From Candidatus Nomurabacteria bacterium (GTDB lineage Bacteria > Patescibacteriota > Minisyncoccia > Phycocordibacterales > UBA918), in assembly GCA_020632075.1 (NCBI GenBank), contig JACKGH010000001.1:1-40132 (forward strand): a DNA stretch of 40,132 bases, written 5' to 3'. The first letter of the stretch is position 1, and every line of letters begins with the position of its first letter. This document shows positions 1,445-35,890 of this stretch, one piece after another. The position numbers and the translations under genes were made by a program. A model generated the notes under the pieces. It was not told the DNA's origin and made no database searches. It saw only the letters and a list, made by a program, of their open reading frames with translations.

Positions 1445-1488
1445 TGAAAATGAAAAGCGGCATGTTTGCATCCAAGCAAACATGCCGC
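1445..1488 (-). terminator. intrinsic terminator of the 125-aa orphan gene
   Basis: Minus strand reads GCGGCATGTTTGC-ttggat-GCAAACATGCCGC followed by TTTTCATTTTC. Confidence 0.6.
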
Positions 1489-1525
1489 AGTAGGGGAGAG
1501 GGTTATTTTTTACGGACTGGCTATC

Positions 1526-1903
1526 CTAGCCGGTCCAGACGCCGGTCTGTTCGAAGATCTCTTCAGCCCGGCGGTTGCCGAGCGGCGCTTCGAACTGTTG
1601 GTCGTTCACGAACATGCGATAGCAGTCGTGACGGTAATCACGGTGACCGTGGTATACCGGCTCGTAGTCGGGCCAGTCGCCAAGGCTGTCTTCCGGCAGG
1701 CCCCTGACCTGGAAGCCTGGAAGCAGCATGTCATCGCTGATCTCATCGATCGGGATGAAGTCGCTGTCGAGCAGGTCCATTCCGGTCAGGGTGCCGTCGT
1801 CGAGCTCCTCCAGCAGGGTGGAGAAGTCAGTGATCCGGCCGGGGCCGAATCCAACTGCCGAGCCGATCTGGGTGCCGAAGGTGTTGATTGCCGTGTCACA
1901 CAT
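1526..1903 (-). CDS. hypothetical acidic protein, 125 aa (GC-rich orphan cassette 1)
   Basis: Start chosen at the internal ATG (1903), preceded by AAGGGAGA 8 nt upstream. Own promoter and terminator. The protein is rich in Asp and Glu. No family recognised. Confidence 0.55.
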   Translation of the reverse strand: MCDTAINTFGTQIGSAVGFGPGRITDFSTLLEELDDGTLTGMDLLDSDFIPIDEISDDMLLPGFQVRGLPEDSLGDWPDYEPVYHGHRDYRHDCYRMFVNDQQFEAPLGNRRAEEIFEQTGVWTG

Positions 1904-1956
1904 TGTTGTGTCTCCCTTTTGCTTGTGGTTGGAACTGAGTAACAATTACGTTTATT

Positions 1957-1985
1957 ATAATAGCACAAAAATATTAAAAAGTCAA
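1957..1985 (-). promoter_or_regulatory. sigma70-type promoter of cassette 1
   Basis: Minus strand reads TTGACT-17 nt-TATTAT with TGC immediately before the -10. Nearly the same layout as the promoter at 12833-12861. Confidence 0.5.
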
Positions 1986-2000
1986 TATATTTACGTATGA

Positions 2001-2032
2001 AAAGAGGGGCTGCCATAACGATGGTCAGCCCC
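2001..2032 (-). terminator. intrinsic terminator of cassette 2
   Basis: Minus strand reads GGGGCTG-13 nt loop-CAGCCCC followed by TCTTTTC. Confidence 0.55.
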
Positions 2033-2079
2033 TGTCCGGAGAGATTTATAGTGACCGTACCTACGGCCAGTTGTGTTGT

Positions 2080-2439
2080 TTACGCATTGCTGCATTTCGC
2101 ATTCTGCGTAATCTCCTTTGGTTTTCCCGGTGCACTATGCTCCGGGCGCCATTTGATGTCGCTGCGCTGGCGTTGGGCGCTCATTCGGAATCGAATGGTC
2201 TCATCGGGTAGCCCCCGCGGCGTGTTGTCGGTGAAGAACATGTCGCATGTCGCTTCGGACGTATCGGTACGTGCGAAGCTATACATGGACTCCTTTGTTG
2301 CTGCGTACGGCACCAGACTTCCGGCGCCGGCGAGCAGCGGTTGGGGAGAGTTAACGCGCTCTGGCGTTGACGACTGCTCCCTAGTTCGTTCTTCGACTCC
2401 AGCAAGCACCACCCACTTGGCGGTGTTAAAAATCTGCAT
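2080..2439 (-). CDS. hypothetical protein (GC-rich orphan cassette 2), start uncertain: 119 aa from ATG 2439 or 68 aa from ATG 2286
   Basis: The frame is open from 2487. The TTG at 2487 overlaps the -35 box, so it is rejected as a start. ATG 2286 has AAGGAG 3 nt upstream. ATG 2439 has no SD and sits inside a strong stem-loop. Confidence 0.35.
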   Translation of the reverse strand: MQIFNTAKWVVLAGVEERTREQSSTPERVNSPQPLLAGAGSLVPYAATKESMYSFARTDTSEATCDMFFTDNTPRGLPDETIRFRMSAQRQRSDIKWRPEHSAPGKPKEITQNAKCSNA

Positions 2440-2453
2440 GGAGTGGAACGAAC
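2287..2453 (-). promoter_or_regulatory. highly structured 5' leader or ncRNA portion of cassette 2
   Basis: Three stem-loops on the minus-strand RNA. The first is at 2384-2453 (about 14 bp, enclosing the inner hairpin 2407-2425). The second is GAGCAG/CTGCTC (2332-2337 with 2374-2379). The third is CGGCGCCGG-aagt-CTGGTGCCG (2308-2329), which has two G-U pairs that work only on the minus strand. Confidence 0.35.
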
Positions 2454-2459
2454 TGTAAT

Positions 2460-2487
2460 ATCCTAGCATATTTAAAATATTTGTCAA
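2460..2487 (-). promoter_or_regulatory. sigma70-type promoter of cassette 2
   Basis: Minus strand reads TTGACA-16 nt-TAGGAT (TGC before the -10). Confidence 0.45.
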
Positions 2488-2497
2488 GTATTTTAGG

Positions 2498-2598
2498 AAG
2501 CCAAGCTAACCGCCTTCCTCAGACACGGATCAAGTCCTATGCTCAGGCGTTTAGGATACGCCTTCCGCAATGTCTTCCGAAGGCGGTTCGCTTGGCTT
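2498..2598 (+). ncRNA. unclassified structured element, copy 1 of 3 (E1)
   Basis: 20-bp closing stem AAGCCAAGCTAACCGCCTTC / GAAGGCGGTTCGCTTGGCTT (1 mismatch). It encloses the conserved cores GACACGGATCAAGTCCTATGCTC and TCCGCAATGTCTTCC. Located 45 nt upstream of the hydrolase ATG. Confidence 0.4.
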
Positions 2599-3779: not shown

Positions 3780-6251
3780 ATGCCGAAAAAGACCCAAGCT
3801 CCTGAGCCTGCAGAGGTGAATCATGGAAAGATCATCAGCCAGAGTATTACTGGTGAGATGGAAACAGCGTATCTCGACTATGCGATGTCGGTGATCACGC
3901 AGCGTGCGCTCCCAGATGTGCGTGATGGTCTGAAGCCAGTGCATCGACGTATCTTGTACTCAATGCGTCTCAATGGTCTGACTTCAACCGCAAAATTCCG
4001 TAAGTCTGCGACGGTAGTTGGAGACGTGCTTGGTAGTTTTCATCCGCACGGTGACACGGCAGTGTATGACTCAATGGTGAAGTTGGCACAGCCATTCACG
4101 ACACGCTACCCACTCGTGATCGGTCAAGGAAACTTTGGTTCGATCGATGGTGACTCGCCAGCTGCGTACCGATACACTGAGGCTAAGATGTCCAAGATGT
4201 CAGAAGAAATGCTTCGTGATCTTGAAAAAGACACAGTAGATTGGCGACCAAACTTTGACGGTACCAAGAAAGAGCCAACCGTGCTTCCAGCAGCAGTACC
4301 GAACCTACTCCTTAAAGGTGAGTTGGGTATCGCGGTGGGTATGGCGACCAACATCCCGCCACATAACCTCCGTGAAGTGGCTGATGCGACCGCACATCTT
4401 ATTGATAACCCTAAGGCCTCTACCGATGACCTGTTGAAGTTCATTCAGGGGCCAGATTTCCCGATGGGCGCGATCGCGTTTGATAAAAAGGCTATTGCAC
4501 AAGCGTACGCTAACGGCCGTGGTGGTGTGGTGGTACGTGGTGAAGCAGAGATCGTAGAAGACAAGCGTGGTGCATTTTCGATCGTGATCACTTCAATCCC
4601 ATTTCGCGTCAACAAGGCAGACATGCAGGAAAAGATCGCTAATCTCGTGCGTGAAAAGAAGATCGAAGGTATCAAGGAAATGCGCGACGAATCAACCGAC
4701 GATATCCGGGTGGTGATCGACCTCAAGACTGGTGCGCAGCCACAGACAGTCCTCAATAAGCTCTACAAGCACACACAGCTCGAAGAAACGTTCCACTACA
4801 ACATGGTGGCGCTCGTTGACGGTGTGCCACAGACGTTGTCACTCAAGGCGATTCTTGAAGAGTACATCAAGCACCGCGCTGAAGTGGTTCGCCGTCGCAC
4901 GCAGTATGATTTAAATAAAGCTAAAGACCGAGAGCATATCTTGCTTGGTCTGAAGAAAGCCCTCGACCACATTGATGCGATCATCAAACTGATCCGCGCG
5001 TCTGCAGATGTACCGACCGCTCATGCAGGACTCATGAAGAAGTTTAAGTTTTCAGCGATCCAGGCGCAGGCTATTCTCGATATGCGTCTCCAGAAGCTTG
5101 CTGGACTTGAGCGCAAGAAGATCGAAGATGAACTAAAGATGATCCAGAAGCTCATCAAGGAGCTTGAAGCGATTTTGGCAAGCAAGGCCAAAATGATGAA
5201 GATCGTAAAAACCGAACTGCTTGATATTGCTGAGAAGTTTGGTGATGATCGTCGCACCAAGATCGTGAAAGGTGGCGTAAAGCAGCTCTCACAGGAAGAT
5301 CTTGTGCCTGACGAGGAGTCGGTGCTTGTGCTCACTAAGGGAGGGTACGTAAAGCGTACTAATCCAACTGAATACAAAACACAAAAGCGTGGTGGTGTTG
5401 GTGTGGTTGATCTCAATACCAAGGAGGAGGATGTGGTAACCACACTGCTTACAACGTCTGCACATAGCGATCTCTTATTCTTTACTGACTTTGGTAAGGT
5501 GTATCAGTGCAAGATGTTTGAGATTCCAGAGGGGCGTCGTGCTACGAAGGGTAAGTCGATCATGAACTTCCTTTCGCTCACTGCTGATGAACGAGTAACT
5601 TCTGTGCTTGCAGTTCGTAAGGAAGACTGGGAAGGTGATTGGTCGCTTATGATGATTACTAAGAATGGTGTGGCTAAGAAGAGTGATGCTGCAGCCTTCA
5701 AGGACGTGCGTCGCTCTGGTCTCATTGCTATTACTCTTAAAGATGACGACTCTCTTATCGATGCAATGTTTGTGGGAGCGAAGGATGAAGTGTCGCTTAT
5801 CACTGAGAAGGGTCAGGCGATCCGCTTCAAGGAGTCTGATGTGCGTCAGATGGGTCGTACCGCGGCTGGTGTGGCTGCCATGAAGCTAAGTAAGGGCGAC
5901 AAGATCGTTTCGGCCGATGTGCTCACAGCTGGTGCAAAAGACCGCGAAGTGCTCGTGGTGACCGAACATGGATTTGGAAAGACGACTCCGGCCAAGGAAT
6001 ACAAGGTGCAAAATCGTGGTGGTTCTGGTATCAAAACTGCAAAGGTGACTGACAAGACTGGTGTGATCGTGCGCGGTCTGGTGTTGACGGGAGAAGAACG
6101 AGAAGAAGGTGAGCTTGTGATCATGAGTAAGAAGGGGCAGGTGATCAAGCTTCCTTTGAAGCAGGTACCGACACTCGGGCGCGATACACAGGGAGTGCGT
6201 GTGATGAAGATGCGAGCAGGAGATAGTATCGCGAGTGTGGTGTTTGTTTAA
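3780..6251 (+). CDS. gyrA: DNA gyrase subunit A
   Basis: 823 aa. Has the active-site motif [10 protein letters not shown] and the C-terminal beta-pinwheel repeats. Confidence 0.97.
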
Positions 6252-8375: not shown

Positions 8376-8735
8376 ATGAAAAAAGCCAACTCACTTTTCA
8401 CCAGTCTGTACACCTTTGCTCTAGTGTTCGGACTTCCAGTTGTTGCCGCAGCAGCTGATTTTTCTTGGACGGTCGAGAACCTTACTAAGTTCCCAGACCT
8501 TAAAACACTACTTCTCGGCATTCTCAACGTCTTCGTGGTGATCGCAACTCCGATCGTGGTGCTATTTATCATTTACTCTGGCTTTTTGTATGTGACAGCG
8601 CGTGGTAACCCGCAACAGCTCGAACAAGCGACACGTTCACTTACCTATTCGATCATTGGCGGGATACTCATTCTTGGTGCTGTTGCCTTCGCGGCAATTC
8701 TGCAGAATCTCATCAATGCCTTCGCGGCTCCGTAA
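8376..8735 (+). CDS. T4SS-type pilin (TrbC/VirB2-like), paralog 1, with signal peptide
   Basis: 119 aa. Signal peptide, then two hydrophobic helices joined by the loop ARGNPQQ. This is the typical two-helix pilin hairpin. Confidence 0.7.
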   Translation: MKKANSLFTSLYTFALVFGLPVVAAAADFSWTVENLTKFPDLKTLLLGILNVFVVIATPIVVLFIIYSGFLYVTARGNPQQLEQATRSLTYSIIGGILILGAVAFAAILQNLINAFAAP

Positions 8736-8746
8736 GCAATAATCGT

Positions 8747-9016
8747 ATGGGATCTAAAGAACTTACAAATCCACTCGCGTTTGCAAGTATTACTGATTTT
8801 CTTGCCGCAGTCTTGCAGGTGTTCATCATTATGGCGACCCCGATCGTTATCTTTTTCTTGATCTATGCTGGATTTTCATATGTCACTGCCCGTGGCAATC
8901 CAGCAAAGATCGAGCTGGCGAGTAAGTCGTTGCTCTACGGCGCAATTGGCGGAGTGGTAATACTTGGCTCAGTTGCGATTATGACCATTATTAAGAACCT
9001 GGTGGCTGCATTCTAG
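8747..9016 (+). CDS. T4SS-type pilin (TrbC/VirB2-like), paralog 2
   Basis: 89 aa. The segment ATPIVIFFLIYAGFSYVTARGNPAK closely parallels paralog 1. Confidence 0.7.
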   Translation: MGSKELTNPLAFASITDFLAAVLQVFIIMATPIVIFFLIYAGFSYVTARGNPAKIELASKSLLYGAIGGVVILGSVAIMTIIKNLVAAF

Positions 9017-9041
9017 TCAGTCGATCATTAACTAATACTTT

Positions 9042-9296
9042 ATGCCTCCAACAACGTACGCGGGTCTAGTAAATGAAGTAATAAATATCATCAACCTTGC
9101 TATACCGGCACTGTTTGGTTTTTTGTTTCTCTACTTCATGTGGAAAATGATCGACACGTGGATCCTACATGCTGGTGATCCAAATCAAATCGATGATGGG
9201 AAGAAGTATGCTATGGCTGCGGTGGTGGTCTTTGTGCTTGCGATCATCACCTACGGGCTTATCAGACTGATCAGAAATTCATTGTTTGGTGTGTAG
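9042..9296 (+). CDS. pilin-like two-helix membrane protein, paralog 3 (divergent)
   Basis: 84 aa, two TM helices with the loop HAGDPNQ. Confidence 0.55.
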   Translation: MPPTTYAGLVNEVINIINLAIPALFGFLFLYFMWKMIDTWILHAGDPNQIDDGKKYAMAAVVVFVLAIITYGLIRLIRNSLFGV

Positions 9297-9363
9297 TGAA
9301 AAGCACTTGTGCCGTGTATAACTACATTGTGTGCTTGTAATTATCAATTTATACTGTATCGTA

Positions 9364-9382
9364 AACGTTATAACGTTATAAT
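9364..9382 (+). promoter_or_regulatory. 14-bp perfect palindrome abutting a TATAAT box upstream of pilin paralog 4
   Basis: AACGTTATAACGTT (9364-9377) runs into TATAAT (9377-9382). Confidence 0.3.
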
Positions 9383-9400
9383 TTATTCATAAAAATACGT

Positions 9401-9781
9401 ATGAAAAAGATTGCATATCTAACCGGTTCGCTTGCGACATTGGCTCTGCCAATGGTAGCGGGTGCGCAGGGTATTACAAAAGCTGGTGGTAATCTTGGTG
9501 GTTTTGAGATCATCATCACCAACATCACCAATGCTATTACTACCTACCTATTGCCGTTTGTTCTTGCGTTGGCATTCATCGCATTTGCCTGGGGTATGTT
9601 CCAGTACTTCATCGCTGGCGGTGCTAACGAAGAAGCAAAAGAAAAGGGTAAGAGTTTGATGATCTACGGTGTACTTGGATTCGTTATGATCCTTATCTTG
9701 TGGGGTCTGGTGAACTTCCTGGTAAACTTCACAGGTTTAGGTGGTGATGTTGTTGTACCGCCAGTCGTGCCAAAGATCTAA
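9401..9781 (+). CDS. T4SS-type pilin-like protein, paralog 4, with signal peptide
   Basis: 126 aa. Signal peptide plus two TM helices with the loop AGGANEE. Confidence 0.6.
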   Translation: MKKIAYLTGSLATLALPMVAGAQGITKAGGNLGGFEIIITNITNAITTYLLPFVLALAFIAFAWGMFQYFIAGGANEEAKEKGKSLMIYGVLGFVMILILWGLVNFLVNFTGLGGDVVVPPVVPKI

Positions 9782-9810
9782 TCTTTCTAAAGCTTTTGGA
9801 ATTCCAAACA

Positions 9811-9833
9811 AAAGGCCGCGAAGCGGCCTTTTG
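9811..9833 (+). terminator. intrinsic terminator
   Basis: GGCCGC-gaa-GCGGCC followed by TTTTG. Confidence 0.7.
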
Positions 9834-9880
9834 TCTTGATAACTAGATTGCAGTATTGTCTGTTGTGTTAAAATTTTGCT

Positions 9881-10219
9881 ATGACACCACAAGAAAAGGC
9901 TGCAGCAGAAGCTGCTAGCTTTGTCGCGAAATTCAATAAGATCATTTTATTTCCAACCATCGCACTCCTGAGCGCGGTGGCATTCTTAGTGTTCCTTTGG
10001 GGTCTGGCTGAATACTTCATGAATGCAAATAATGAGCAGGCTAGACAGCAGGGAGTGAAACATATCACGTGGGGGATCATTGGTTTGGTGGTGATGATCT
10101 CGGCGTACGCGATTCTCACGGTTGCGGCTAACACCATTGGTATTGGTACGCAGCTGAAGTGTGCGACTGATCCAAGTCAACCTGGTTGTGGAGCTGCGTT
10201 TACTATTCCTGGTCCGTAG
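9881..10219 (+). CDS. pilin-like two-helix membrane protein, paralog 5
   Basis: 112 aa, two TM helices with the loop NANNEQ and a Cys-containing tail. Confidence 0.55.
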   Translation: MTPQEKAAAEAASFVAKFNKIILFPTIALLSAVAFLVFLWGLAEYFMNANNEQARQQGVKHITWGIIGLVVMISAYAILTVAANTIGIGTQLKCATDPSQPGCGAAFTIPGP

Positions 10220-10317: not shown

Positions 10318-11817
10318 TCAGCGTTGCTGTCGTATCAGAAAGCGTACGCCGGGTTGTCCCATAGCAAGCGCGACCGCTTCGATTGGACCTTCTTCGTCAG
10401 CTTTCTGTCTTGGCTTTGGTGTTAGTCGATGGATGTTCTGGGTTGAGCCCGGAACCTGCCACGGATACAGAAAGTTCACAAATTCCTCGGGATACTTGCC
10501 GGCAAGGTAATACTTCTCATCATCGGTATTTGTTACCAGACTGATGATCAGAGGCTTGCCGGCAACCTTCGGATACAACTGCAATTCCTCACCTCCTTGG
10601 CAGATGGTGAGCGTGCGTCCCCGTTCGTCAAACTTGTAATGCTCGACGCTTGCGGGGGTTGCGCAGCTGTCCGCCATTGCGACGGCTGTGCTAAACGAAA
10701 GGCCGTTCATAACTCCGGCCACGTTCAGTGCGATGACGGCAACAGCAGCCAGGAGGCTAGAGAAGCCCAAAGCAACGATGACTGCAGCCAGATTGATACC
10801 GTAGTCTTTGGATTCCTCTTTCGAGTCACTCCCAGACTTTTTCTTCCGAGGGATGATGCGCCACACAACGATGGTGCCGACCACGATCAGGCCGGCGACC
10901 CACCAGGGCATGTGAATCCTTTCCTCGACCCAGCTGATTGCCGGGTGTTTGGATATTGCACCATTTACGGTGCTGCCCCAGGTTTTGGCGTTCTGCCCCT
11001 GAACATCTTCGGTCGTGATGGGTACGAGCCGTACCCCATCCTTGGGATGGAAGCAGGTACCCTTGGTGGCGTAGTCGAACCCTTTTGCGGGGTATTCGAT
11101 GAGCACGCCTTCGATGTACTCTGAACGGCACATCTCCGGAGTGTAGTCACCAACCACCTCCCTCGTCACCGGATGAACCATGCGAATGGCTTCTCCGTTA
11201 GCGAAGTTTTTGCCAGGGTACTGGGGGAAGATGGCGATCCAGGCCGCGAAGATCGAAGCCAGGATTGCGTAGCCGAGGATGAATTTCCAGGCGACGCTGC
11301 CGTCGACATTGTAGTGTTGCAATGCCAGCAGGCCAAGCAAGACTGCCCAGAACATGATCCCGAACGAACCGATTGAGTGCTCAAACGGGAAGGTCATCAG
11401 CGTGAATCCAGCGACTACGGCGAGTAGCATGAAGGCGATGACAATCCGCATCCAGAGCAGAAGTCCTTGGAATACACCCTTGGACTTATCCTTGTCCTGT
11501 AGGAAGTGGGCGATAAGCCCGAAGACGCCAAATGCTAAAAGGTTGGTAACCTTGACGCCAGCCATCAGAATCATGAAGAACCCGATGAGCATGACGGCGG
11601 AGTTTACAAAGGGGTGGATGTAGACGTTTACGAGCAACATCACCACCACCAACCCGAGGACTGCCATAATGCTGAACAGTCCAGCCATGAAGATCTTGGT
11701 GAAGTTGTGAGTGATGAAGTTGCCCCAATCCTCAGTCGAGCTGTTGGAGTCTGGGACGACCACGTCGTCTTCGTCGGGGGCTCTGAAAGCCCAGGTCAGT
11801 TTTTTGAGCAGATTCAT
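10318..11817 (-). CDS. hypothetical polytopic membrane protein, 499 aa (about 8 TM, two soluble domains)
   Basis: SD is GGAGA 8 nt upstream and overlaps the stop of the upstream gene. Six N-terminal TM helices, a soluble domain of about 100 aa, two more TM helices, and a C-terminal domain of about 120 aa. No family recognised. Confidence 0.7.
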   Translation of the reverse strand: MNLLKKLTWAFRAPDEDDVVVPDSNSSTEDWGNFITHNFTKIFMAGLFSIMAVLGLVVVMLLVNVYIHPFVNSAVMLIGFFMILMAGVKVTNLLAFGVFGLIAHFLQDKDKSKGVFQGLLLWMRIVIAFMLLAVVAGFTLMTFPFEHSIGSFGIMFWAVLLGLLALQHYNVDGSVAWKFILGYAILASIFAAWIAIFPQYPGKNFANGEAIRMVHPVTREVVGDYTPEMCRSEYIEGVLIEYPAKGFDYATKGTCFHPKDGVRLVPITTEDVQGQNAKTWGSTVNGAISKHPAISWVEERIHMPWWVAGLIVVGTIVVWRIIPRKKKSGSDSKEESKDYGINLAAVIVALGFSSLLAAVAVIALNVAGVMNGLSFSTAVAMADSCATPASVEHYKFDERGRTLTICQGGEELQLYPKVAGKPLIISLVTNTDDEKYYLAGKYPEEFVNFLYPWQVPGSTQNIHRLTPKPRQKADEEGPIEAVALAMGQPGVRFLIRQQR

Positions 11818-11831
11818 CTATATTTCTCCTG

Positions 11832-12773
11832 TTAGCTGAGAAGTCTGTAGAAAAATCTGCGGATAGGTGACCATCTTGCCACTTCCGCACGATTTTTCGC
11901 TGCTTGTGTGCGGATGTGGTTGTTGATAGAAGCTCCGACGAGCTTCAGTTTATCGAAGCTGTCAGGAACGAACTCGTCGATCAGATCCAGAGTCTTTTTG
12001 TTGGGCATCAGCGGCACACCGAGTGCGTGCATGTATGCGACAGCGGCTTTGAAGCCGTCCTCGCGTTTACCTTTGACGCTTCTCTTGGTGCTTTCGCTTT
12101 CAGCCTTCTTGACGACCGAAACGATATGCTTGAGAAACCTTACGGTGTTTTTCGATTCCCCTTTGTACAGGTCCTCGCTTACCGTAGTCGTTTCCGTATC
12201 GAGCGGAACAGGCTTTTTATTCGCCTTCGGATCTTTTGGGTTCTGTGCCTTCGGATCTTTGCCGTTGGCCGCCTTCTGACCTTTGTTCTCGGTGGACTCA
12301 GGTTGTTTACCTGGTTCCTCATCTGCAACATTGGTTTCAAGCGGCCTGTCTTCTTCGGAAAAGCCCGGGAGTTTGACGGCGGTGACCACTTTCTTGGTGC
12401 CGACTTTCTTTGAAGCCGAATCCAGTCCGGTGACTGCCACTCGGAACTTATTCATCTGTGCAAAGGCAATTGCGGCCTTCACCCAGCTCCGGGGGTTTTC
12501 ACTGCTGCCGAAATGGTAGTGAATGAGGCCTACCAGAATCTCCTGGTCCTCCTCATCCAGTTCGAGAACAGCTCGAATGAACTTGATCTCGTCCCCATAA
12601 CCGGTAAGTCCAACGCGAAGTTTTTCTTCCGGCGGCAGGGAAGGGTCCACATCGGTCCGCTTTCCCACGACGCCCTTGAGGACATCGAAGACCGCATAGA
12701 TCTCGCCCCAATGGTCTTTAAGGAAGCTTACGACCTTTCGGGTCGCAGTTGTGTCAATGACTTTTGCTGCCAT
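11832..12773 (-). CDS. hypothetical protein, 313 aa, with a central Lys/Pro/Glu-rich disordered segment
   Basis: Start taken at ATG 12773, preceded by GGAGA 7 nt upstream. First gene of a two-gene operon. No family recognised. Confidence 0.65.
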   Translation of the reverse strand: MAAKVIDTTATRKVVSFLKDHWGEIYAVFDVLKGVVGKRTDVDPSLPPEEKLRVGLTGYGDEIKFIRAVLELDEEDQEILVGLIHYHFGSSENPRSWVKAAIAFAQMNKFRVAVTGLDSASKKVGTKKVVTAVKLPGFSEEDRPLETNVADEEPGKQPESTENKGQKAANGKDPKAQNPKDPKANKKPVPLDTETTTVSEDLYKGESKNTVRFLKHIVSVVKKAESESTKRSVKGKREDGFKAAVAYMHALGVPLMPNKKTLDLIDEFVPDSFDKLKLVGASINNHIRTQAAKNRAEVARWSPIRRFFYRLLS

Positions 12774-12832
12774 TTTTTGTCTCCAAATTGTCAAAAATTC
12801 ATTGAGAGGTAAGTCCTCTCTACCTGTTTTCT

Positions 12833-12861
12833 ATAATAGCATAAAATATAGTAAAAGTCAA
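12833..12861 (-). promoter_or_regulatory. sigma70-type promoter of the two-gene operon
   Basis: Minus strand reads TTGACT-17 nt-TATTAT with TGC before the -10. Confidence 0.5.
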
Positions 12862-18465: not shown

Positions 18466-18472
18466 GATCTTG

Positions 18473-20093: not shown

Positions 20094-20438
20094 TTAGTCA
20101 GCCTTCTTTCCGGTCTCGATCTCTCGTACGAGTTCGTCCATGTGTTGACGATGTTTTTCTCCAGCATCTACCATGAATTCAAGATGTGGAATATGCTTGA
20201 TACGAGCTTTACGCTTGAGATAGTTACGTAGTTCAGTTGCATTTCGCTTCAAGAAAATCAACGCATCCTGCTCACGCCCGTCAGGAATGGTGGTAATGAA
20301 AATGATCGCACGACGAGCATCAGGTGAGAGGTCTACGTTGGTGACGGTAATGAGAGGGTCAGTATTAGCCTCTTGCTGAATAAAAGTCGCAGCAAGTTCT
20401 TTGATAAGTTCGGTGATCCTGATGTTGCGGTCAGACAT
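20094..20438 (-). CDS. rbfA: ribosome-binding factor A
   Basis: 114 aa. Typical RbfA sequence, and lies immediately downstream of infB. Confidence 0.9.
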   Translation of the reverse strand: MSDRNIRITELIKELAATFIQQEANTDPLITVTNVDLSPDARRAIIFITTIPDGREQDALIFLKRNATELRNYLKRKARIKHIPHLEFMVDAGEKHRQHMDELVREIETGKKAD

Positions 20439-20440
20439 GA

Positions 20441-21955
20441 TTAAGTAATGACGGTGTCGTATGGCTTAAGGTAATCGCCTGGAGCGATCTCGGCTTTGGT
20501 CTCAAGTTGCATACCGAACTCGCCTTCTTCCACCTGCTGGACGTCAGACTTTGCTTGTTGAAGGTTTTTGATCACGCCAGTACCGATCTCTATATCGCGA
20601 CGGAGGATCTTCACTGATTGGCCGAGTTTGATCGTTCCCTCATCAACACGGCCGCCCATGACATGAATATGTTTCTGCATGCTGAAGTGCTTAAGGATCT
20701 TTACGGTTCCAGTCTCGATCTTCTCCTCTTTCTTCGGGGTGCGGTTCTTAAGGGCTGTTTCAAGCCATTCAGAGAGTTCGTAGATGATGTCGAAGGTATC
20801 GATCTCTACACCGAGTCGTTCTGCCAGGTCTTGTGCTGGTCGCTCAACTTTCACACTGAAGCCAACAATGATCGCGTCTTCAGTTGCACTAACGTTCTGT
20901 ACGTCATTTACGCTCACGTCACCAACCCCCTTGTCGATCACTTTTACAGTAATACGATCTGACTCGAATTTATCGAGCTCGTGCTCAATTGCGTCGAGTG
21001 TGCCAAGCACGTCAGCTTTAATGAGAAGAGGAACGACAGGTAGATTGTTGCGCTTCTTGGTGGTCGATTGCTCTTTATTTGTTTTGTTTTCGTGGTGGGC
21101 AGCAATTGCTACTTCTGCTTCTTTCTTACTATTTACCACGGTAAATTCTGATCCTACTTCAGGAATATCGGTAAAGCCAACAATACGAATTGGTGCAGAG
21201 AGCCCAGCCTCCTTCACGCTCTTGCCTTGAAAATCTTCCATGATACGCACTGGAGAATAGGTCTCACCAGAGACAACAAACTGACCGCTCTTGAGTGTGC
21301 CGTTGGTCACAATGAGAGTGGCGGTGTTACCGCGTTTTGGATCCATCTTGCCTTCAATGATCTTTCCGGTGGCTGCTGCGTTGGTGTCGCCGGTTAGTTC
21401 GGCGAGGTCGGCTGACAAGACTACGAGATCAAGGAGGTCTTCAATGCCTGTCCCTTGCTTGGCTGAGATCGGTGCCCAAGGAACATCGCCACCCATGCCT
21501 TCGATATAGATCTCGTGTTCGATAAGAGTGTTTTTGGTGCGCTGGATATCGGCGCCCGGCTTATCGATCTTGTTGATCGCGACAACGTATGGGATGTCGG
21601 CAGCTTTGATCGATTCAAGTGCTTCGAGGGTCTGTGGCTTTACACCATCTTCGGCAGAGACCATGAGAATTGCTACGTCTGCCACGTCAGCCCCACGTAG
21701 GCGCATTTTCTGGAATGCTTCGTGGCCAGGTGTGTCAAGGAAGGTAATGGTCTCCTCAGCACCGTCCTTGGTCTTGTGCGGTACTACATACGCTGAAAGA
21801 TGCTGGGTGATACCGCCAGCTTCGCCATCGACGATGTTGCTCTTGCGGATAGTATCGAGCAAGGTCGACTTGCCGTGGTCAATATGACCCATAACCACCA
21901 CGACTGGTGGTCGCTTTACTACATTTGGAGCTGCTTGTTTTGATTTTTTAGCCAT
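20441..21955 (-). CDS. infB: translation initiation factor IF-2 (short form lacking the long N-terminal region)
   Basis: G-domain motifs [17 protein letters not shown] and NKID. Start set at ATG 21955 (MAKKSK...) rather than the upstream TTG. Confidence 0.93.
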
Positions 21956-22039
21956 AAGTATCCCGTACGTTAAAAACACCCAATGGGTGTGTAAATTAGC
22001 CAATAATTACGCCGGAGTATAGCAGAGAAAGGGGGTTGT

Positions 22040-22183: not shown

Positions 22184-22274
22184 AGTCTCTAGGTCGTGTA
22201 AACGTTACGGTTTTCTTGACATAATTTAGTTTTTATTTATAAATAGGTCACCAATTTCTTGGGAGGATAGTACC

Positions 22275-22697
22275 TTGTTTAAGTCTCTCTTGACGGTGCC
22301 TGTTATTGCAACTTGTTATGCGATCTGGCCAACAGCAATTGCCTACACCGGCATAAACTCAGCCTGGGGTGGCTTCATTGCGATGTTCACCACAACGGTG
22401 GCTGTTATGGTTTGGGGGGTCGTGAGCGGCAATGTCGCAATTACTCCAGACAGTAGGTCAGTCGTTTTCATGGTGGTCGCAGGTCTGATCAACGGGATCG
22501 GAATTGTGTACCACTCAAAAGCAATGAGCGATCCTGAGGTCGTAAAGGTGATCTTTCAGCCATCAATGGCTGTCGGCATGGTGATTTTCTCTGCTTTGAT
22601 CGCATGGTTCGTGCTCAAAGAGCCGGTTTCTCTCCGTCAGGGAGTCTGGCTTGCAGCAGCGGCGTTTTGCGTGGTTATGGCCACAACCCAAAAGTAA
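22275..22697 (+). CDS. small polytopic membrane protein (EamA/SMR-like half-transporter?)
   Basis: 140 aa, 4-5 TM helices. TTG start preceded by GGGAGGA 7 nt upstream. Confidence 0.5.
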   Translation: MFKSLLTVPVIATCYAIWPTAIAYTGINSAWGGFIAMFTTTVAVMVWGVVSGNVAITPDSRSVVFMVVAGLINGIGIVYHSKAMSDPEVVKVIFQPSMAVGMVIFSALIAWFVLKEPVSLRQGVWLAAAAFCVVMATTQK

Positions 22698-24143: not shown

Positions 24144-26855
24144 ATGCCGAATTTTCACAATTTCACAACTAAGGCGAAGGAGGCAATTAGAAAAGCACAC
24201 GAATTAGCGATCGAGCGCGGACAGAATCATGTGAGTCCAGTGCATCTTTTGACTGCACTTTCAATGCAAGACGAGAGTGCGGTGATCGCGATTTTAGATC
24301 GTCTAGACGTTGATGTGATTGCGTTCACTGATCTGCTTCTTGAGGCGCTTGAAATGCCAGAATCGCAATCGACGATCTCTCAGTCGTATCAGTTGTACCT
24401 CACACCAGAACTTGCAAAGGCGTTGGAATTCTCTGGTGCCTTCGCCGAGCAACTTGGCGATTCATATGTCGGCGTAGAACACCTTTTTGTAGCAGCGCTT
24501 GAGCACCCTGGTCCAGCGATCGAGATCATGCAGCGCACCGGTGTTGACAAGAATCGTGTGATCGAAGCGATCAAGGAACTTCGTGATAGCAACGTGTCAG
24601 ACGCCCAGTCGCCGAAAAAGTACCGCACGCTCACCAAGTACACCCGTAATCTCACTAAACTTGCCCAAGAGAACAAACTCGATCCAGTCATTGGTCGCGA
24701 TGTCGAAGTGCAGCGTGTGATCCAGATCCTTTCACGACGCACTAAGAACAACCCGGTCCTCATTGGTGAAGCGGGAGTAGGGAAGACTGCTATTGCAGAA
24801 GGACTCGCACAGCAGATCGTGATGGGGCAGGTGCCAGAATCAGTCAAAGAAAAAGAGATCCTTTCACTCGATCTCGGCCTTTTGGTGGCGGGTACGAAGT
24901 TTCGTGGTGAATTTGAAGAACGTCTCAAGGCCGTTATGAAAGAAGTGGAGCAAGGTGCTGGCCGATTTATTTTGTTTATTGATGAACTACATACGATCGT
25001 GGGGGCAGGTCAGGCCGATGGCTCAATGGATGCTTCAAATATGCTCAAGCCAGCGCTGGCTCGTGGTGAGATCCGCGTGATCGGCGCTACTACGCTAAAG
25101 GAATACCAGAAGTATATTGAACGCGACCCGGCTCTCACTCGTCGTTTTCAGCCAGTCTATGTAAATGAACCAACCCAAGAAGATGCGATCGCGATCTTGC
25201 GAGGACTTGCGGAAAAGTATGAGCTTTACCACGGTGTTCGCATCACTGATGATGCGATCGTGGCAGCGGTGAATCTTTCTTCTCGCTACATCACCGATCG
25301 TTTTCTTCCAGACAAGGCAGTCGACCTGATCGACGAAGCAGCATCTGCACTCCGTATATCACTTGAGAACAAACCTGAAGAATTGATCGAGACCGACCGA
25401 CTGATCCGTCGCCTGGAGATCGAGCGTGAGGCGCTCCGAAAAGAAGTCGAGACGACTGAACACAAGAAGAAAGTGAAAGATCGTATCAAGGAGATCGAGA
25501 AGGAAATCGGGGAATACAAAGAAACTACCTCAAACCTTGAAACTAAGTGGAATAATGAAAAAGAGGCGCTTGGTGAGATCAGTAAGCTCAAGAAAGAGCT
25601 TGAAGAGTTGCGTATGGAAGCTGATACAGCTGAGGCGACCGCAGACTTGATTCGTGCTGCTGAGATTCGCTACGATACTATCCCGACCGTACAAAAGGAA
25701 CTCGACGTGAAGCTCCGTCGCTTGAAGAAGTTGCAGCGCACTCGCAGGCTTCTCAAGGAAGAAGTAACCGAGGAAGAGATTGCTGGCGTGGTCTCACGTT
25801 GGACGGGTATCCCGGTTTCTCGCATGCTCGAAGCAGAGGTACAGAAACTTGCCCGTATGGAAGAAGTGCTGCATGAGAAGGTGATTGGTCAGGATGAAGC
25901 AGTAAAGCTCGTGTCAGACGCGATCAAGCGTTCACGAGCGGGTATTGCTGATCCGAATCGTCCGATTGGCTCATTCCTCTTTCTTGGACCGACTGGAGTG
26001 GGTAAGACTGAACTTTCACGCGCCCTTGCTGAGTTTATGTTCAATGATCCAGATTCGCTCGTGCGGATCGATATGTCTGAATTTATGGAGAAGCACTCAG
26101 TTTCTAAGATCATTGGTTCGCCGCCTGGCTATGTGGGACACGATGAAGGAGGTTCGATCACCGAGAAAGTACGCCATCGTCCGTACGCGGTGATCTTGCT
26201 TGACGAGATCGAAAAGGCACATCCTGAAGTGTTTAACATCCTCTTGCAGGTACTTGACTCGGGTCATTTGACTGACGCAAAAGGTCGCAAGGTGAACTTC
26301 AAGAACACGGTCATTATTATGACCTCAAACATCGGCGCGGAGCATATCAATCGCATGTCGAACTTTGGCTTTGCTGACGATCACGGTGAGGAAGCTCAAT
26401 TCGTGCAGGCGAAGGACAAGGTGATGGATAGTCTCAAGGAATATTTCCGACCAGAATTCCTTAATCGTCTTGATGAGATCATTACCTTTGAGCTGCTTTC
26501 ACAAGATGATCTGGCTAAGATCGTTGAGATCCAGGTCAATGATGTGGTAGCACGACTGGCGAAGAAGGAGATCGTACTTACAGTGACGCAGGAAGTAAAA
26601 GATTACTTGGCCAAGGAAGGATATGATCCAAAGTACGGCGCTCGACCACTACGTCGTGTGATCCAGAATAAGATTCTTACTCCAGTCGCTAATATGATGG
26701 TAGGGGAGGGAATGCTTCAAGGTGGTACGGTCAAAGTATCGCTAAAGAAGGGCGAGTTAGACTTCGATATAAAGAAAAAGGGCCGCCGCAACGCGGCGGC
26801 CCCAAAGAAGGCTGCTAAGACCACCGCCAAGAAACGCGAGGCAGTCACAGCATAA
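24144..26855 (+). CDS. clpB: ATP-dependent chaperone ClpB
   Basis: 903 aa. Clp N-domain, two AAA+ modules (GEAGVGKTA and GPTGVGKTE), and a long coiled-coil middle domain. Confidence 0.97.
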
Positions 26856-27431: not shown

Positions 27432-27689
27432 TCAACCGAGACTGGCGAGTCCATCAGGGAAGAGTACTGAGGCGATGAAATGCATGAACGTCGGCTCGAA
27501 GTTGGGTTTCGTGTTTGCCTTCTGGAAATCACGGAAGCGTACCCAGAGGGCTTCACCCTTCTCGGGAACAGCTTCGAGAAAATCTTGCAGATGTTCGTCC
27601 CCGAGGGAACTTCTGGCGGCCGTGAATGCTGCCACGAGCCCGAAGATTCCGTCGGTCTTCTCTTCGATCAGTGCTTGCAGGTTGGACAT
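27432..27689 (-). CDS. hypothetical protein, 85 aa (GC-rich orphan cassette)
   Basis: GGAGA SD 6 nt upstream, own promoter and terminator. No family recognised. Confidence 0.55.
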   Translation of the reverse strand: MSNLQALIEEKTDGIFGLVAAFTAARSSLGDEHLQDFLEAVPEKGEALWVRFRDFQKANTKPNFEPTFMHFIASVLFPDGLASLG

Positions 27690-27748
27690 TACTGTCTCCT
27701 CAGTCAGATGGATTTATAAGAGCGCCTAAAACATGATTAGGTAACAAA

Positions 27749-27777
27749 ACAATACACTAAAAATAGTGTATTGTCAA
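27749..27777 (-). promoter_or_regulatory. sigma70-type promoter with an inverted repeat filling the spacer
   Basis: Minus strand reads TTGACA-17 nt-TATTGT. The spacer holds TACACTA-tttt-TAGTGTA (27753-27770), a possible operator. Confidence 0.5.
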
Positions 27778-33000: not shown

Positions 33001-33213
33001 ACTTGTATTGATTACAGTAAGGTTGGTGGTTTCGATGCTGGTGAAATCAATGCAGTGATTGCGGCAGCAGTAGCGAATGATCTTCGACCAGTGTATGAAG
33101 TGCATACTGAGGCTGATAAAAAAGTGCTCGTAGAAGCAGGTGTGCCAGCTGAGTACATTGTTTCGCTTGGCAGTCACATTTCTGCACCGCACTTCTCGAT
33201 CTACGGATATTAG
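30031..33213 (+). CDS. 1060-aa secreted mosaic surface protein (Ig-like, alpha/beta-hydrolase-like, PANPAN linker, internal pilin module, LAS/M15-like peptidase)
   Basis: Signal peptide ending VQA. The motif AGSFG (Ser codon 31468-31470) and GHDLYF (His codon 31906-31908) suggest a Ser/His hydrolase. The pilin module is at about 32233-32508 (CGGPGEEPCKSCH...STGNPEMK...). The C-terminus carries CHNNGTCID...GSHISAPHFSIYGY. Confidence 0.85.
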   Translation: MFSIKNLSRIIGLMTLVLLLVPFADVQAACSRGVISANPQSISEGIDSRLTWLINDAYIGMVTGVNVTGFGSVGPAGAPTVNPAVTTTYTMTASFNDGVVESCSATVYVGEEAPDFGSIELLDQLFTPDSENQWFKPWDSPYTEADLKSDDNGRLVNVTVQNKVVGAGEGSIYPIFVLRDSQGTLVDLVYGDMEKATQKYVFSDDVNTYPAGTPVVQNDDGTVTSEYKILKTGEAYEFTGMAFDKTQVDLPQVFNVINEITGTGEIPEGAGLPPQSTVFTMVLSNGGVIQPDGSVCPDPACAVNDADGIPAGPGAPATPIDLADPADPVNPVQPAPAPNVTPMQQMVPIGAPKPCVDPGFNGWMCLKLRYGATPYTVTARYNLTAGGQTDTVIWFSGGGGTTINRTVSGGAAVQDRLAAENVRSIDIQFTNTDPDIWSSGTLNPTLAGLPDKSALVASITDYLVDNGFTAGKKAKIAAGSFGTLLTSYALAYHGLESNVDEVVLSSGPMGFSFSQELHDVSSPIYLDPSVKLGPTPVVDIVKAANAWNVIPACNPGVTPCPENDAVSMFDATGVPFPGVDVVYPGVEVHTILGGKDVPWFLASNAYWNVRISAAARTTDIFPSLGHDLYFNSDVQDLVVNYLVAMSPSDPINPANPANPANPANPANPANPANPANPGDSANPANPGDPANPVNPGDPAPVPLAPDPSIALNNSSFSSVSSLPPAPPVGSAPADGGLVPCGGPGEEPCKSCHVVQLVNNVSKWLVGIMMIVFAIMVVVSGILLTSSTGNPEMKVATRRRIANAAVGLIIVLAAWILIDTVMKILLKTGPGSLGPWNEIQCTVQPLVNDAMYAWGGDPSNLYGNSSVIDTTLCAAGAGGNTDCEALINNCQRSGYTPTVDKSNPANYVVNCIELRVGSPAPLPGATPVSCSGSECTPLDPAMCKDLNSCSISPDLQPKLDSMHTAVAALGGRVSEAMPPTYNHISKCHNNGTCIDYSKVGGFDAGEINAVIAAAVANDLRPVYEVHTEADKKVLVEAGVPAEYIVSLGSHISAPHFSIYGY
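31975..32125 (+). repeat. in-frame tandem repeat encoding (PAN)n / PANPGD
   Basis: The 27-bp unit AACCCCGCTAATCCAGCCAACCCCGCC occurs at 31984-32010 and again at 32011-32037. A third partial copy follows, then degenerate PANPGD units. Confidence 0.9.
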
Positions 33214-34436: not shown

Positions 34437-34512
34437 AGAGCTGAGTGTAGCAAAAACAGCTTGTAATACAATGGTGTGGTATGATGTCTGCGATTAATTC
34501 GTAATTCTATCT

Positions 34513-35127
34513 ATGAACATGGAACATGCATGTAAATGTGGGGAAGCTGTTGTATACGCACCGTTGACGGTCGGTGACGCTGTACCTGAGGAACTCGATT
34601 TCCCGGTACTGCACAATGACGAAGAAAAGCAGATGAGTTTTAAGGAGCTTCGCGGGAAGTGGGCTGTGCTGGTTTTCTATCCAAAAGACTTTACCTTTAT
34701 TTGTCCTACTGAGCTCGAAGATATGCAGAAGCATTATGAAGCGTTTACCGCAGAAGGTGCAGAAGTGATCTCAGTTTCAACTGACACGATCGAAGTGCAT
34801 AAAGCATGGCACGACAACTCACCAGCAATCAAGACACTCACGTACCCGATGGCAGCCGATCCAGCACATGTACTGTCTGAAGTATTTGGTGTACTGATCC
34901 CTGAAGCAGGAGTAACACACCGTGCGACGTTTATCATTGATCCGGAAGGAGTGATTCGCTGTATTGAGATCAATCACGATGCAATTGGTCGCAGTGCGAA
35001 GGAAACGCTCCGCAAGATGAAGGCAGCAAAGCATGTAAACGAACATCCGGGAAATGTCTGTCCAGCCAGCTGGGAAGAAGGAGATGAGACTTTGAAGCCA
35101 GGTCTTGATCTGGTTGGGAAGATCTAG
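34513..35127 (+). CDS. typical 2-Cys peroxiredoxin (AhpC/Prx1 type)
   Basis: Peroxidatic motif FTFICPTE and resolving-Cys motif VCPASW. The true start may be the ATG 6 nt downstream. Confidence 0.9.
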   Translation: MNMEHACKCGEAVVYAPLTVGDAVPEELDFPVLHNDEEKQMSFKELRGKWAVLVFYPKDFTFICPTELEDMQKHYEAFTAEGAEVISVSTDTIEVHKAWHDNSPAIKTLTYPMAADPAHVLSEVFGVLIPEAGVTHRATFIIDPEGVIRCIEINHDAIGRSAKETLRKMKAAKHVNEHPGNVCPASWEEGDETLKPGLDLVGKI

Positions 35128-35135
35128 GAACTAGA

Positions 35136-35176
35136 AAGTATAAAGGCCGGGGCGCTTCGCGCCCCGGCCTTTATAC
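35136..35176 (+). terminator. intrinsic terminator (GGCCGGGGCGC family, 19-bp extended palindrome)
   Basis: AGTATAAAGGCCGGGGCGC-ttc-GCGCCCCGGCCTTTATACT. Confidence 0.75.
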
Positions 35177-35180
35177 TTTG

Positions 35181-35262
35181 TGCCTCGGGAGGGAGTCGAA
35201 CCCTCAAGCCTTACGGCATACGATTTTGAGTCGTACGTGTATACCAATTCCACCACCGAGGC
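35181..35262 (-). tRNA. tRNA-Leu (anticodon CAA), long variable arm
   Basis: Acceptor GCCTCGG/CCGAGGC, anticodon stem TACGA/TCGTA, loop CTCAAAA, T-loop TTCGACT. Confidence 0.9.
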
Positions 35263-35323
35263 GGGTGATAGGTGACAGTGAGTGTACCAGAAAAAACATG
35301 GAATGAGAACAACTCTTTCTTAA

Positions 35324-35356
35324 CATCAAAATAGCCCACCGTATCAACAGGGGCTA
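35324..35356 (-). terminator. weak intrinsic terminator of the 123-aa orphan gene
   Basis: Minus strand reads TAGCCC-13 nt-GGGCTA followed by TTTTGATG. Confidence 0.4.
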
Positions 35357-35370
35357 AGTGTTCGGTCGTT

Positions 35371-35742
35371 TCAAGCTCTCTCGAGAGGAATCTCTGTATC
35401 CCAAGCCCCATCCCGCTTTTCAATGAACAACATGACCGGCCTTGTGAGCTCGAGGCGTATCTGCCCCAATTCAATGAACCACTCCTTCGTTGTTGTAAAA
35501 AGCTCATCAGGAACGGTCATGTGGACATGTCCTACCGGGGGATTCTTGAAACTCACTACGTTTTTAGCTTCATCGTCAAAGCCAAATTCTCCACCAGAAC
35601 AAAACAGGTTGTCGGCAAAGGAGTCGCAGAAGAGTTCTGCCTGTTTGTCGTTCTCCAGTGCAGTCAGTTTGAATCCAATGCACTCGTCACCTTTGATGAG
35701 TAGGTGGCAAGTAACGCTAAGTTCGTTGTCATTTGTTGACAT
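35371..35742 (-). CDS. hypothetical protein, 123 aa (GC-rich orphan cassette next to tRNA-Leu(CAA))
   Basis: GGAGGTG SD 4 nt upstream of the ATG, own promoter and terminator. No family recognised. Confidence 0.55.
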   Translation of the reverse strand: MSTNDNELSVTCHLLIKGDECIGFKLTALENDKQAELFCDSFADNLFCSGGEFGFDDEAKNVVSFKNPPVGHVHMTVPDELFTTTKEWFIELGQIRLELTRPVMLFIEKRDGAWDTEIPLERA

Positions 35743-35778
35743 TTATCACCTCCAGTGGTTCCCGTACATCTGGTTTGC

Positions 35779-35807
35779 ATAGTACAGATATCAGGTATTT
35801 AACGCAA
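35779..35807 (-). promoter_or_regulatory. candidate promoter of the 123-aa gene
   Basis: Minus strand reads TTGCGT-17 nt-TACTAT. Confidence 0.4.
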
Positions 35808-35890
35808 GAATAGTAAGAAACTGATTGATCAAACAAGTATGTTAGAATACAGGCATATCGAGTATGTAGAGCTCGGAGGTAATATTTGTT

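Follow-up and report, generated by a model that had tools for sequence, protein, structure and literature searches.

The first 40,132 bases of contig 1 of a Candidatus Nomurabacteria genome (the window in what follows; the genome, labelled G000, is 1.18 Mb in two contigs with 48.6% GC, and other G labels denote comparison genomes) raise the question of why six orphan genes should each be preceded by a canonical Shine-Dalgarno (SD) motif when the conserved genes around them are preceded by none. A sequence-only reading of the window had proposed that two translation-initiation regimes are present and that the SD-led orphans came from an SD-dependent donor. The two regimes are real, genome-wide and far above chance, and the SD-led class, to which the six orphans belong, amounts to roughly 80-140 genes, or 8-13% of those called. 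There is about an even chance that this class represents a functional, SD-led flexible genome lying beside SD-less core genes, in an organism whose own 16S rRNA lacks the CCUCC sequence of the canonical anti-SD.

Genes were called with an in-house codon-score caller, which yielded 1064 genes covering 87.7% of the genome; the start was taken as the first start codon of each open reading frame (ORF), i.e. the longest ORF, chosen without regard to SD motifs. An SD core was defined as GGAG, GAGG or AGGA at positions -14 to -5, and a 5-mer motif served as a stricter test. By the first measure 139 of 1063 genes carry an SD core, compared with 39-54 in six control windows, and the position is sharply defined: GGAG starts at -12, -11, -10 and -9 in 14, 35, 25 and 8 genes, where positions -60 to -25 average 3.0 each. 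The 98 GGAG-led genes give the consensus (A)GGAG(G/A), with A in 60% at motif position -1 and, at +4, G in 46%, A in 38%, T in 13% and C in 3%; the spacer has its mode at 6-7 nucleotides (nt), 82 spacers being tallied within 5-8 nt, and GGAGG stands at the proper position in 76 genes. The same pipeline applied to 50 kb of E. coli K-12 as a control recovered an SD core before 22 of 52 genes (1 and 3 in controls), there with no dependence on GC content at third codon positions (GC3).

In G000 such a dependence is strong, and SD presence tracks both GC3 and a lower native-codon score, as the sequence-only reading had supposed from the window and as could now be checked genome-wide. The share of genes with an SD core is 5% at GC3 up to 0.45, 8% at 0.45-0.50, 9% at 0.50-0.55 and 13.5% at 0.55-0.60, and it reaches 38% at 0.60-0.65, 56% at 0.65-0.70 and 53% above 0.70, while the control window gives 0-8% in every bin; AGGAG alone precedes 40 of the 159 highest-GC3 genes and is seen twice in the control window. 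The SD-led genes are also shorter, and their proteins are richer in W, C, R and H. No bias toward membrane or secreted proteins was seen, a transmembrane-like segment being present in 45% of them and 42% of core proteins.

The class is in addition largely accessory. The sister species G006 (0.90 Mb, with a 16S tail identical to that of G000) was taken whole and the two gene sets were compared in full, other comparison genomes being sampled as 200 kb. A reciprocal best hit in G006 was found for 25 of 139 SD-led genes and for 559 of 925 other genes (Fisher p 1.3e-21), so that 114 of the SD-led genes have none. By the stricter 5-mer test core genes of low GC3 are at chance (9 of 553, control 14), and the motif precedes 46 of 99 accessory genes of high GC3 and 45 of 381 accessory genes of low GC3.

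The conserved genes appear to start in a different manner. Their upstream regions show no purine enrichment, and among all called genes T occupies position -1 in 539 of 1064 and G in only 85, the usual start-site preference being a pyrimidine at -1 and a purine at +1. The -10-like pattern TANNNT stands before 291 genes with its end 5-10 nt from the start, compared with 101 in a control window, and it separates the two classes, being found there in 288 of 959 non-SD genes and in 3 of 105 SD-led genes. Good -10 hexamers likewise cluster at different distances upstream of the start, 4-9 nt in non-SD genes and 30-60 nt in SD-led genes, which thus have leaders of 30-60 nt behind promoters of the native type. 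Since transcription from a -10 box 4-9 nt before the ATG would begin at the start codon or beside it, at least a fifth of the genes would be leaderless, a statistical estimate that applies to the set and not gene by gene. The remaining native genes have SD-less leaders, as gyrA does, or lie inside operons.

A leaderless-type core fits a 16S rRNA that has lost CCUCC. The single 16S gene of G000 ends after helix 45 in GGAUUAAUUCCAAU, where the CCUCC of the E. coli tail (GAUCACCUCCUUA, as given in the part of PMC6107228 drawn on here) is replaced by AUUCC, and within 5 kb downstream of the tail no CCTCC was found other than inside other sequence. This loss had been overlooked in the sequence-only reading, and duplex energies calculated against either the organism's own tail or the canonical one do not separate start regions from controls. 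The G000 tail recurs in 9 of 9 same-genus genomes with a recovered 3' end, CCUCC is missing from all 16 genomes of the order in which that end was recovered, and the tails of seven other families of the order are more degenerate still, mostly of the form ..UUCA... Ribosomal protein uL1 (PF00687) gave no match in G000, which is 99.7% complete, and matched in all 14 control genomes. From another order of the class, G951 yielded by the same method a canonical tail, GGAUCACCUCCUUUCU, yet it shows little use of SD motifs (an SD core before 17 of 182, controls giving 13 and 8); planned as the positive control, it was replaced by E. coli in that role. Because a genome with a canonical tail makes so little use of SD motifs, SD-independent initiation of core genes seems to be a class-wide trait, and loss of the anti-SD a later step.

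Evidence that the SD-like motif is retained, and not only present, comes from a cassette formed by the second and first genes of a two-gene operon at 10318-12773 of the window. Slot 2, flanked by the pilin cluster and by the rhodanese-family gene at 13066, holds a two-gene minus-strand operon in all six genus genomes compared. The neighbours of the slot are 43-76% identical in protein, while those of the operon reach no more than 27-29% and for the most part escape recognition by BLAST; nevertheless all 12 operon genes of the six species have GGAG or AGGA 6-7 nt before a start codon, a count inflated in that this codon was picked partly by the SD core. The leader of the first gene (…TTGACAAYT…GGAG…) is recognisably shared across the six genomes, and window positions 12823-12862, which hold the cassette promoter, are 88% identical to the syntenic G006 site. 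GC3 of the cassette follows the GC content of each host with an offset, which suggests long residence.

Wider searches show the cassette to be restricted to the genus. The 499-residue orphan, which has about nine hydrophobic segments, has relatives of 25-31% identity in 8 of 80 genus genomes, all eight with an SD core, and in none of 150 other genomes of the order; among 5.8 billion proteins only two relatives were found, both named Candidatus Kaiserbacteria. The 313-residue orphan is absent from 400 genomes spread over the phylum, and a profile of its family retrieved 28 cluster representatives among 1.84 billion and two weak matches in 400 genomes of the class. The family is present in 20 of 127 genus genomes, with an SD core before 17 of the 20 first genes and a downstream ORF of at least 150 residues with an SD core in 15 of the 20 loci, counts that are inflated in that starts were picked among 1-8 candidates partly by the SD core and the second gene was defined by one; even at a false-positive rate of 34%, 17 of 20 has a binomial p of 4e-6. 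The motif varies among GGAG, AGGAG, AAAGGA and GAGGA, GGAA being about as common as GGAG at these loci, and its distance to the start is constant. Given this turnover of sequence at a fixed place, in a family confined to a genus without CCUCC, the motif is most simply taken to be under selection there, and mere inheritance from a donor would not explain its retention. A TTGACA motif (window 12785-12800) lies 1-8 nt upstream of the first-gene SD in most genus genomes, too near the start to be a -35 element of that gene; an operator is one possible role for it and a share in a leader structure another. In the window it is immediately preceded by a GAGAGG...CCTCTC hairpin.

The same division of genes is seen in some, and not in others, of the genomes compared. 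In G006, for which 818 genes were used, 78 have an SD core where controls give 48 and 32, and the share rises to 30% against 2% in the top GC3 decile, and in G283, whose tail was not recovered, the top decile stands at 58% against 16%. G021, of another family and with a tail that lacks CC, has 26 against 7 and 12, with GAAAGG or AAAGG before 16 of its 30 highest-GC3 genes and a variable base after GG. The signal of G029 is weak (14 against 10 and 6), and no SD-led class was found in G025 or G028, both genomes of 0.6 Mb. The SD-led class thus grows with genome size and does not follow the tail. The G283 figure includes a run (C1:2194-6007) of six small same-strand genes with strong SDs (GGAGG, GAGGAGGAG, AAAGGAGG and AGGAGGAGGTGATCC) and GC3 of 0.54-0.73 in a genome of 45% GC, and this run looks like a compact mobile or phage-like module in this other family of the class.

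Within the window, upstream sequences bear out the statement that all six minus-strand orphans have a GGAG-type motif 3-8 nt before the ATG (Table 1), as well as the statement that the named native genes have none: no core was found at -14 to -5 of rpsA, gyrA, infB, rbfA, clpB, miaA, the five pilins or the pilin fusion. Two conserved genes have weak or odd matches, GAGG with 7 nt at 13066 and GGAGG with 11 nt at 35891. That the orphans are GC-rich holds for four of them, against a genome median GC3 of 0.50, and hardly for the gene at 35371-35742, while their common location on the minus strand is a coincidence, since the plus-strand ORF at 22275-22697, absent from the sequence-only reading, is led in the same way. 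The ORF at 2080-2286 is the weakest of the six as a gene, having been missed by the coding score that called the other five. None of the six has a match in Pfam or in PHROG.

The view that the orphans are not core genes is supported by slots that are empty or differently filled in relatives, by their membership of the accessory class and by the tRNA-Leu(CAA) neighbour of one of them. Of five relatives, two have an empty slot in place of the orphans that start at 1903 and 2286, and three have different SD-led ORFs there; the gene at 1526-1903 has no homolog in the five same-genus genomes. The slot at 34437-35890, which contains the orphan at 35371-35742, measures 455 bp in G006 and is free of genes there, and that at 22004-23022, around the plus-strand ORF, measures 101 bp. 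The orphan regions also turned up on contigs from four DNA sequencing runs, each of a different study, and several of the pieces show 0 differences; these contigs show only that the species recurs in wastewater and activated sludge, and one run may be the source sample.

Table 1. Features of the window that bear on the two modes of initiation, in order of position
Feature	Position	Strand	Signals and remarks
rpsA (ribosomal protein S1)	141..1256	-	Pfam S1 domains; no SD; 78-88% identical in relatives
Orphan gene, 125 aa, GC3 0.78	1526..1903	-	SD GGAG at 1912-1915, 8 nt before ATG
Promoter, sigma-70-type	1957..1985	-	TTGACT, 15-nt spacer, TGCTATTAT; -10 ends 53 nt before ATG at 1903
Orphan ORF, 68 aa	2080..2286	-	AGGAG at 2290-2294, only 3 nt before ATG
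gyrA	3780..6251	+	TGCTATACT promoter ~35 nt upstream; SD-less leader; 83-89% identical in relatives
Five small pilin genes of type IV secretion system type (TrbC/VirB2-like)	8376..10219	+	PF18895 on 2 of 5; none with SD
Orphan, 499 aa, second cassette gene, GC3 0.68	10318..11817	-	AGGAG at 11826-11830, 8 nt before ATG
Orphan, 313 aa, first cassette gene, soluble, GC3 0.60	11832..12773	-	GGAG at 12781-12784, 7 nt before ATG
Cassette promoter	12833..12861	-	TTGACT, 15-nt spacer, TGCTATTAT; -10 ends 59 nt before ATG at 12773
infB and rbfA	20094..22003	-	Pfam; no SD
SD-led accessory ORF, 140 aa, GC3 0.58	22262..22697	+	GGAGG at 22262-22266, 8 nt before TTG at 22275
clpB	24144..26855	+	Pfam; TATAAT ~16 nt before ATG; no SD
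Orphan gene, 85 aa, GC3 0.64	27432..27689	-	GAGGAG at 27696-27701, 6 nt before ATG
Candidate promoter of orphan 27689	27749-27777	-	Sequence pattern
Pilin fusion	30031-33213		Pfam
miaA	33540..34436	-	Pfam; TGCTACACT ends 7 nt before ATG; leaderless-type arrangement
tRNA-Leu(CAA)	35180..35262	-	Directly downstream of orphan 35371-35742, abutting
Orphan gene, 123 aa, GC3 0.53	35371..35742	-	GGAGG at 35749-35753, 6 nt before ATG
Candidate promoter of orphan 35742	35807-35832	-	Sequence pattern
aa, amino acids.

Four of the six orphans have a TTGAC-type -35 and a TANNNT -10 that ends 53-64 nt before the ATG. The native style that had been noted in their promoters is borne out by the extended -10 (TGn), found in 15 of 75 SD-led and 126 of 563 other genes. 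The promoters at 1957-1985 and 12833-12861 had been described as near-copies of each other; they are identical at 22 of 29 positions, although 10 of the positions are consensus and the spacers are 78% A+T, and 3.8% of the pairs drawn from the genome's 13 promoters with this layout match at least as well. As evidence of a common source their likeness is therefore weak.

These findings would be accommodated by the following scheme. The six orphans would belong to the flexible, fast-changing part of a Kaiserbacteria-type Paceibacteria genome, the conserved core of which is translated without SD motifs, many core genes having a -10 box that ends 4-9 nt before the ATG and so a transcript predicted to be leaderless. 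The flexible genes would each be furnished with a sigma-70-type promoter, a leader of 30-60 nt, (A)GGAG(G/A) or AAAGGA 6-7 nt before the start and GC-rich third positions, and would occupy variable slots and islands between conserved genes, turning over from species to species and consisting mostly of orphans. The SD-like element would be kept by selection, because in the cassette the sequence of the motif changes between species while its position stays, and most likely would still bind ribosomes instead of being a decaying souvenir.

What would read such a motif is a further matter. The reader could be a residual four-base-pair pairing of GGAR with the UUCC of the tail, or something else, and several features weigh against the tail, and with it against a functional motif. 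Genome-wide at -12 to -9 GGAG outnumbers GGAA by about 82 to 15, although it is GGAA that pairs fully with UUCC; the bases around the motif are not those that would pair with the lineage's tail, as judged from the low frequency of T at +4; and the class does not follow the tail, since G028 (CUUCC) has none whereas G021 (UUUC) has it with the motif GAAAGG. The 16S tail is for this last contrast not supported as a reader across families. Nor do GGAA, GAAT or AATTAA show a positional peak upstream of starts genome-wide. A co-evolved SD that matches the organism's own tail was considered on the basis of TAATC (30 against 7) and set aside, TAATC having no sharp position and being part of the AT-rich -10 signal; extended complementarity to the canonical tail was uninformative, GGAGG being followed by TG in 13 of the 76 genes against 12% genome-wide. 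That bacteria of the Paceibacteria without an anti-SD run a second, SD-dependent channel by way of a reader other than CCUCC, be it the residual UUCC, another segment of rRNA or a protein, is accordingly a bold proposal and on present odds an unlikely one. If it were true, separable routes of translation would serve the core and the flexible genome, and incoming genes that depend on an SD may meet, in the loss of the anti-SD, a filter at the level of translation.

A free-standing RNA that carries the missing anti-SD was also looked for. At 131468-131660 of contig 2, inside a gene-free stretch of 880 bp, lies GAGGAGGTGATC, followed about 120 nt later by an inverted copy, GATCACCTCCTT, which is the canonical 16S tail that the 16S of G000 itself is without; read on the minus strand, the element is followed by a terminator-like hairpin that has a U run. 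A match to an Rfam family of toxic small RNAs is not significant (E 0.99), and the fold has a z of -1.5 against shuffles. The candidate was rejected, as the 12-mer pair (C2:131509 and C2:131641) is found in none of 60 genus genomes and its structure is not significant.

Other explanations of the SD-led class give the motif a different meaning or none. It is possible, if doubtful, that the genes are recent imports from SD-dependent donors such as canonical-tail Patescibacteria or their mobile elements, and a comparable doubt attaches to the further supposition that SD and codon style came with the DNA, are functionless here and are decaying, translation proceeding by the native SD-independent leadered route. 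A good deal speaks for such passive inheritance and so weighs against a class kept for function. G006 has nothing in 29 of the 66 syntenic slots that an SD-led gene occupies in G000, which looks like insertion (34 hold some gene there and 14 an SD-led gene), and two islands of 16-20 kb at C1:920-941 kb and C1:973-989 kb, with 10 and 9 SD-led genes, are nearly absent from that species; of 20 proteins from these islands 16 have no Pfam match, the rest being an ADP-ribosylglycohydrolase, a PP2C phosphatase, an AI-2E-type transporter and an MscS-type channel. The falling SD frequency with GC3 among accessory genes argues for decay. Only 7 of the 25 SD-flagged genes with a G006 ortholog have an SD core there and 18 have lost it, although many of the 25 are chance matches in well-conserved genes; some of the G006 orthologs are AT-rich with a leaderless-type upstream region, as would be expected if the SD is lost over time in residence. 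For some SDs the match to the canonical tail extends over 9-12 nt, as for GGAGGTGAT before the gene that starts at 35742, the same gene that a tRNA-Leu adjoins, and the two most streamlined of the sampled genomes have no such class. The case for a functional class is also limited by crude gene calls, with starts set by the longest ORF, and by the inflation of the cassette counts noted above. Against passive inheritance stand the failure to find a donor for the window orphans and the cassette itself, which is confined to a genus where 9 of 9 recovered tails lack CCUCC and yet retains SD-like motifs at constant spacing while the variant changes, and whose GC3 in slot 2 follows that of its hosts. 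As to origin, species-specific insertions make up one part of the class, in keeping with transfer, and positionally conserved, fast-evolving loci another, in keeping with long residence.

A trans-acting regulator, either a protein that binds GGA or a small RNA whose seed resembles CCUCC, might instead control the accessory genes jointly through the motif, a quite improbable reading but one that would account for retention of the motif in a lineage without a canonical anti-SD, for GGA as the common core of all cassette variants and for the 12-nt canonical-tail copy beside a terminator-like hairpin on contig 2. That element, as described above, is unconserved and poorly supported as a structured RNA, GGA is not invariant in G021, and the spacing of 6-7 nt and the AGGAGG-type consensus are exactly those of ribosome binding. 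Finally, the whole paradox would vanish if a second rRNA operon with a canonical tail had gone unassembled and the SD-led subset were ordinary; the gap between two contigs could indeed hide a repeat. Such an artefact is very improbable indeed, given one 16S at 99.7% completeness, a degenerate tail in all nine genus genomes with similar tails and none canonical in seven other families, and the recovery of the canonical tail of G951 by the same method.

The proposal of a foreign donor in part survives: the two regimes, the GC3 link, the accessory status and the empty slots all stand. No SD-dependent donor outside the lineage, be it phage or host, was found for the window orphans. A phage source of the SD-led genes was pursued through PHROGs, with no match among seven proteins tested, and through viral contigs, where no relative of two island proteins was found within the reach of that search, which extends to close relatives only; it was abandoned. 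The SD-led ADP-ribosylglycohydrolase has its nearest named relatives in Patescibacteria at 49-62% identity, those in Actinobacteria being 26-33% identical, the search having been pattern-seeded so that ranking beyond close matches is unreliable. Its family is SD-led in 6 of 7 other Patescibacteria metagenome-assembled genomes, where its GC3 equals that of its surroundings, a further point in favour of passive inheritance; in four of these genomes the gene is preceded by AAAGGA, which complements the UCCUUU of the canonical long tail as found in G951. Pfam models of VirB4, VirD4 and relaxase matched nothing in the genome, integrases being outside that search, and the idea that the orphans are delivered to a host cell by way of the nearby pilus genes of type IV secretion system type was dropped on this account. 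As for timing, the cassette keeps its slot and its SD in six species, which speaks for long residence; recent transfer is not indicated.

Some other features of the window deserve mention. The pilins have their Pfam match in PF18895, the TrbC/VirB2-like family of type IV secretion, and not in type IV pili. Positions 16492-18470, between tRNA-Leu and tRNA-Lys, contain two genes (16580-17737 and 17789-18409) without a homolog in five relatives, and contigs of two runs join 16492 straight to 18470/18471, albeit with weak sides of 29-32 nt; this stretch may be an insertion between tRNA genes. Short stretches at 12936-13001 and 16260-16390 match several unlinked sites in relatives and also three tandem copies in G199 at C1:611371-611732 (spacing of ~153 nt) and C2:51288-51776 (~182 nt), and are repeated intergenic elements of no recognised kind.

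In practical terms, an SD motif together with high GC3 is a simple sequence marker that splits the flexible from the core genome in uncultured, reduced bacteria, and gene finders that fit a single ribosome-binding model to a genome will put the starts of one of the two classes in the wrong place. The question raised is why a canonical SD should be under selection where the 16S cannot pair with it in the usual way, and its answer bears on the evolution of initiation after loss of the anti-SD and on whether that loss limits or shapes gene transfer.

Among known systems, leaderless and SD-led genes coexist in Actinobacteria, Deinococcus and haloarchaea, where the 16S keeps CCUCC. These leaderless-rich taxa resemble G000 in having a -10-type box a few nt before the start together with a second, leadered SD class, and differ in that their SD class is not known to be confined to accessory genes of odd composition. 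By the ordinary signs of SD membership the genes described here have the purine motif and the 5-9 nt spacing, and their own 16S has no CCUCC anti-SD.

A subgroup of Parcubacteria without the anti-SD motif and uL1 has been described (Tsurumaki et al. 2022, PMC9297842), and G000, whose affiliation to Parcubacteria/Kaiserbacteria rests on the names of homologs, resembles it in both respects, having neither CCUCCU at the 16S 3' end nor uL1. In the portion of that paper drawn on here loss of the motif is reported with no mention of an SD-led subset, and SD helices are thought not to form, whereas about one tenth of the genes of G000 have a canonical SD. According to the part of a broader survey used here, organisms without a recognisable anti-SD are generally also without a recognisable SD (Amin et al. 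2018, PMC6107228); its groups, as far as that part goes, are Bacteroidetes, Mycoplasma and Carsonella and not candidate phyla. Like those organisms G000 has conserved genes without SDs and no motif complementary to its variant tail, and unlike what that part of the survey describes it has a sharp SD peak confined to accessory, GC3-rich genes. No paper was found on an SD-led subset in candidate-phyla bacteria without an anti-SD, though supplements may hold per-genome data.

Genomic islands recognised by atypical composition are a further comparison. The SD-led genes share with islands a deviant GC3 (above 0.6, with the genome median at 0.50), absence from a near relative (here G006), a preponderance of orphans and, in one case, a position beside a tRNA gene, while the donor and mobility genes and the phage similarity that mark many islands were not among the findings of the searches described above. 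Unlike the usual islands, the SD-led genes are GC-richer and not AT-richer than their host, have an initiation signal of their own and are in part positionally conserved.

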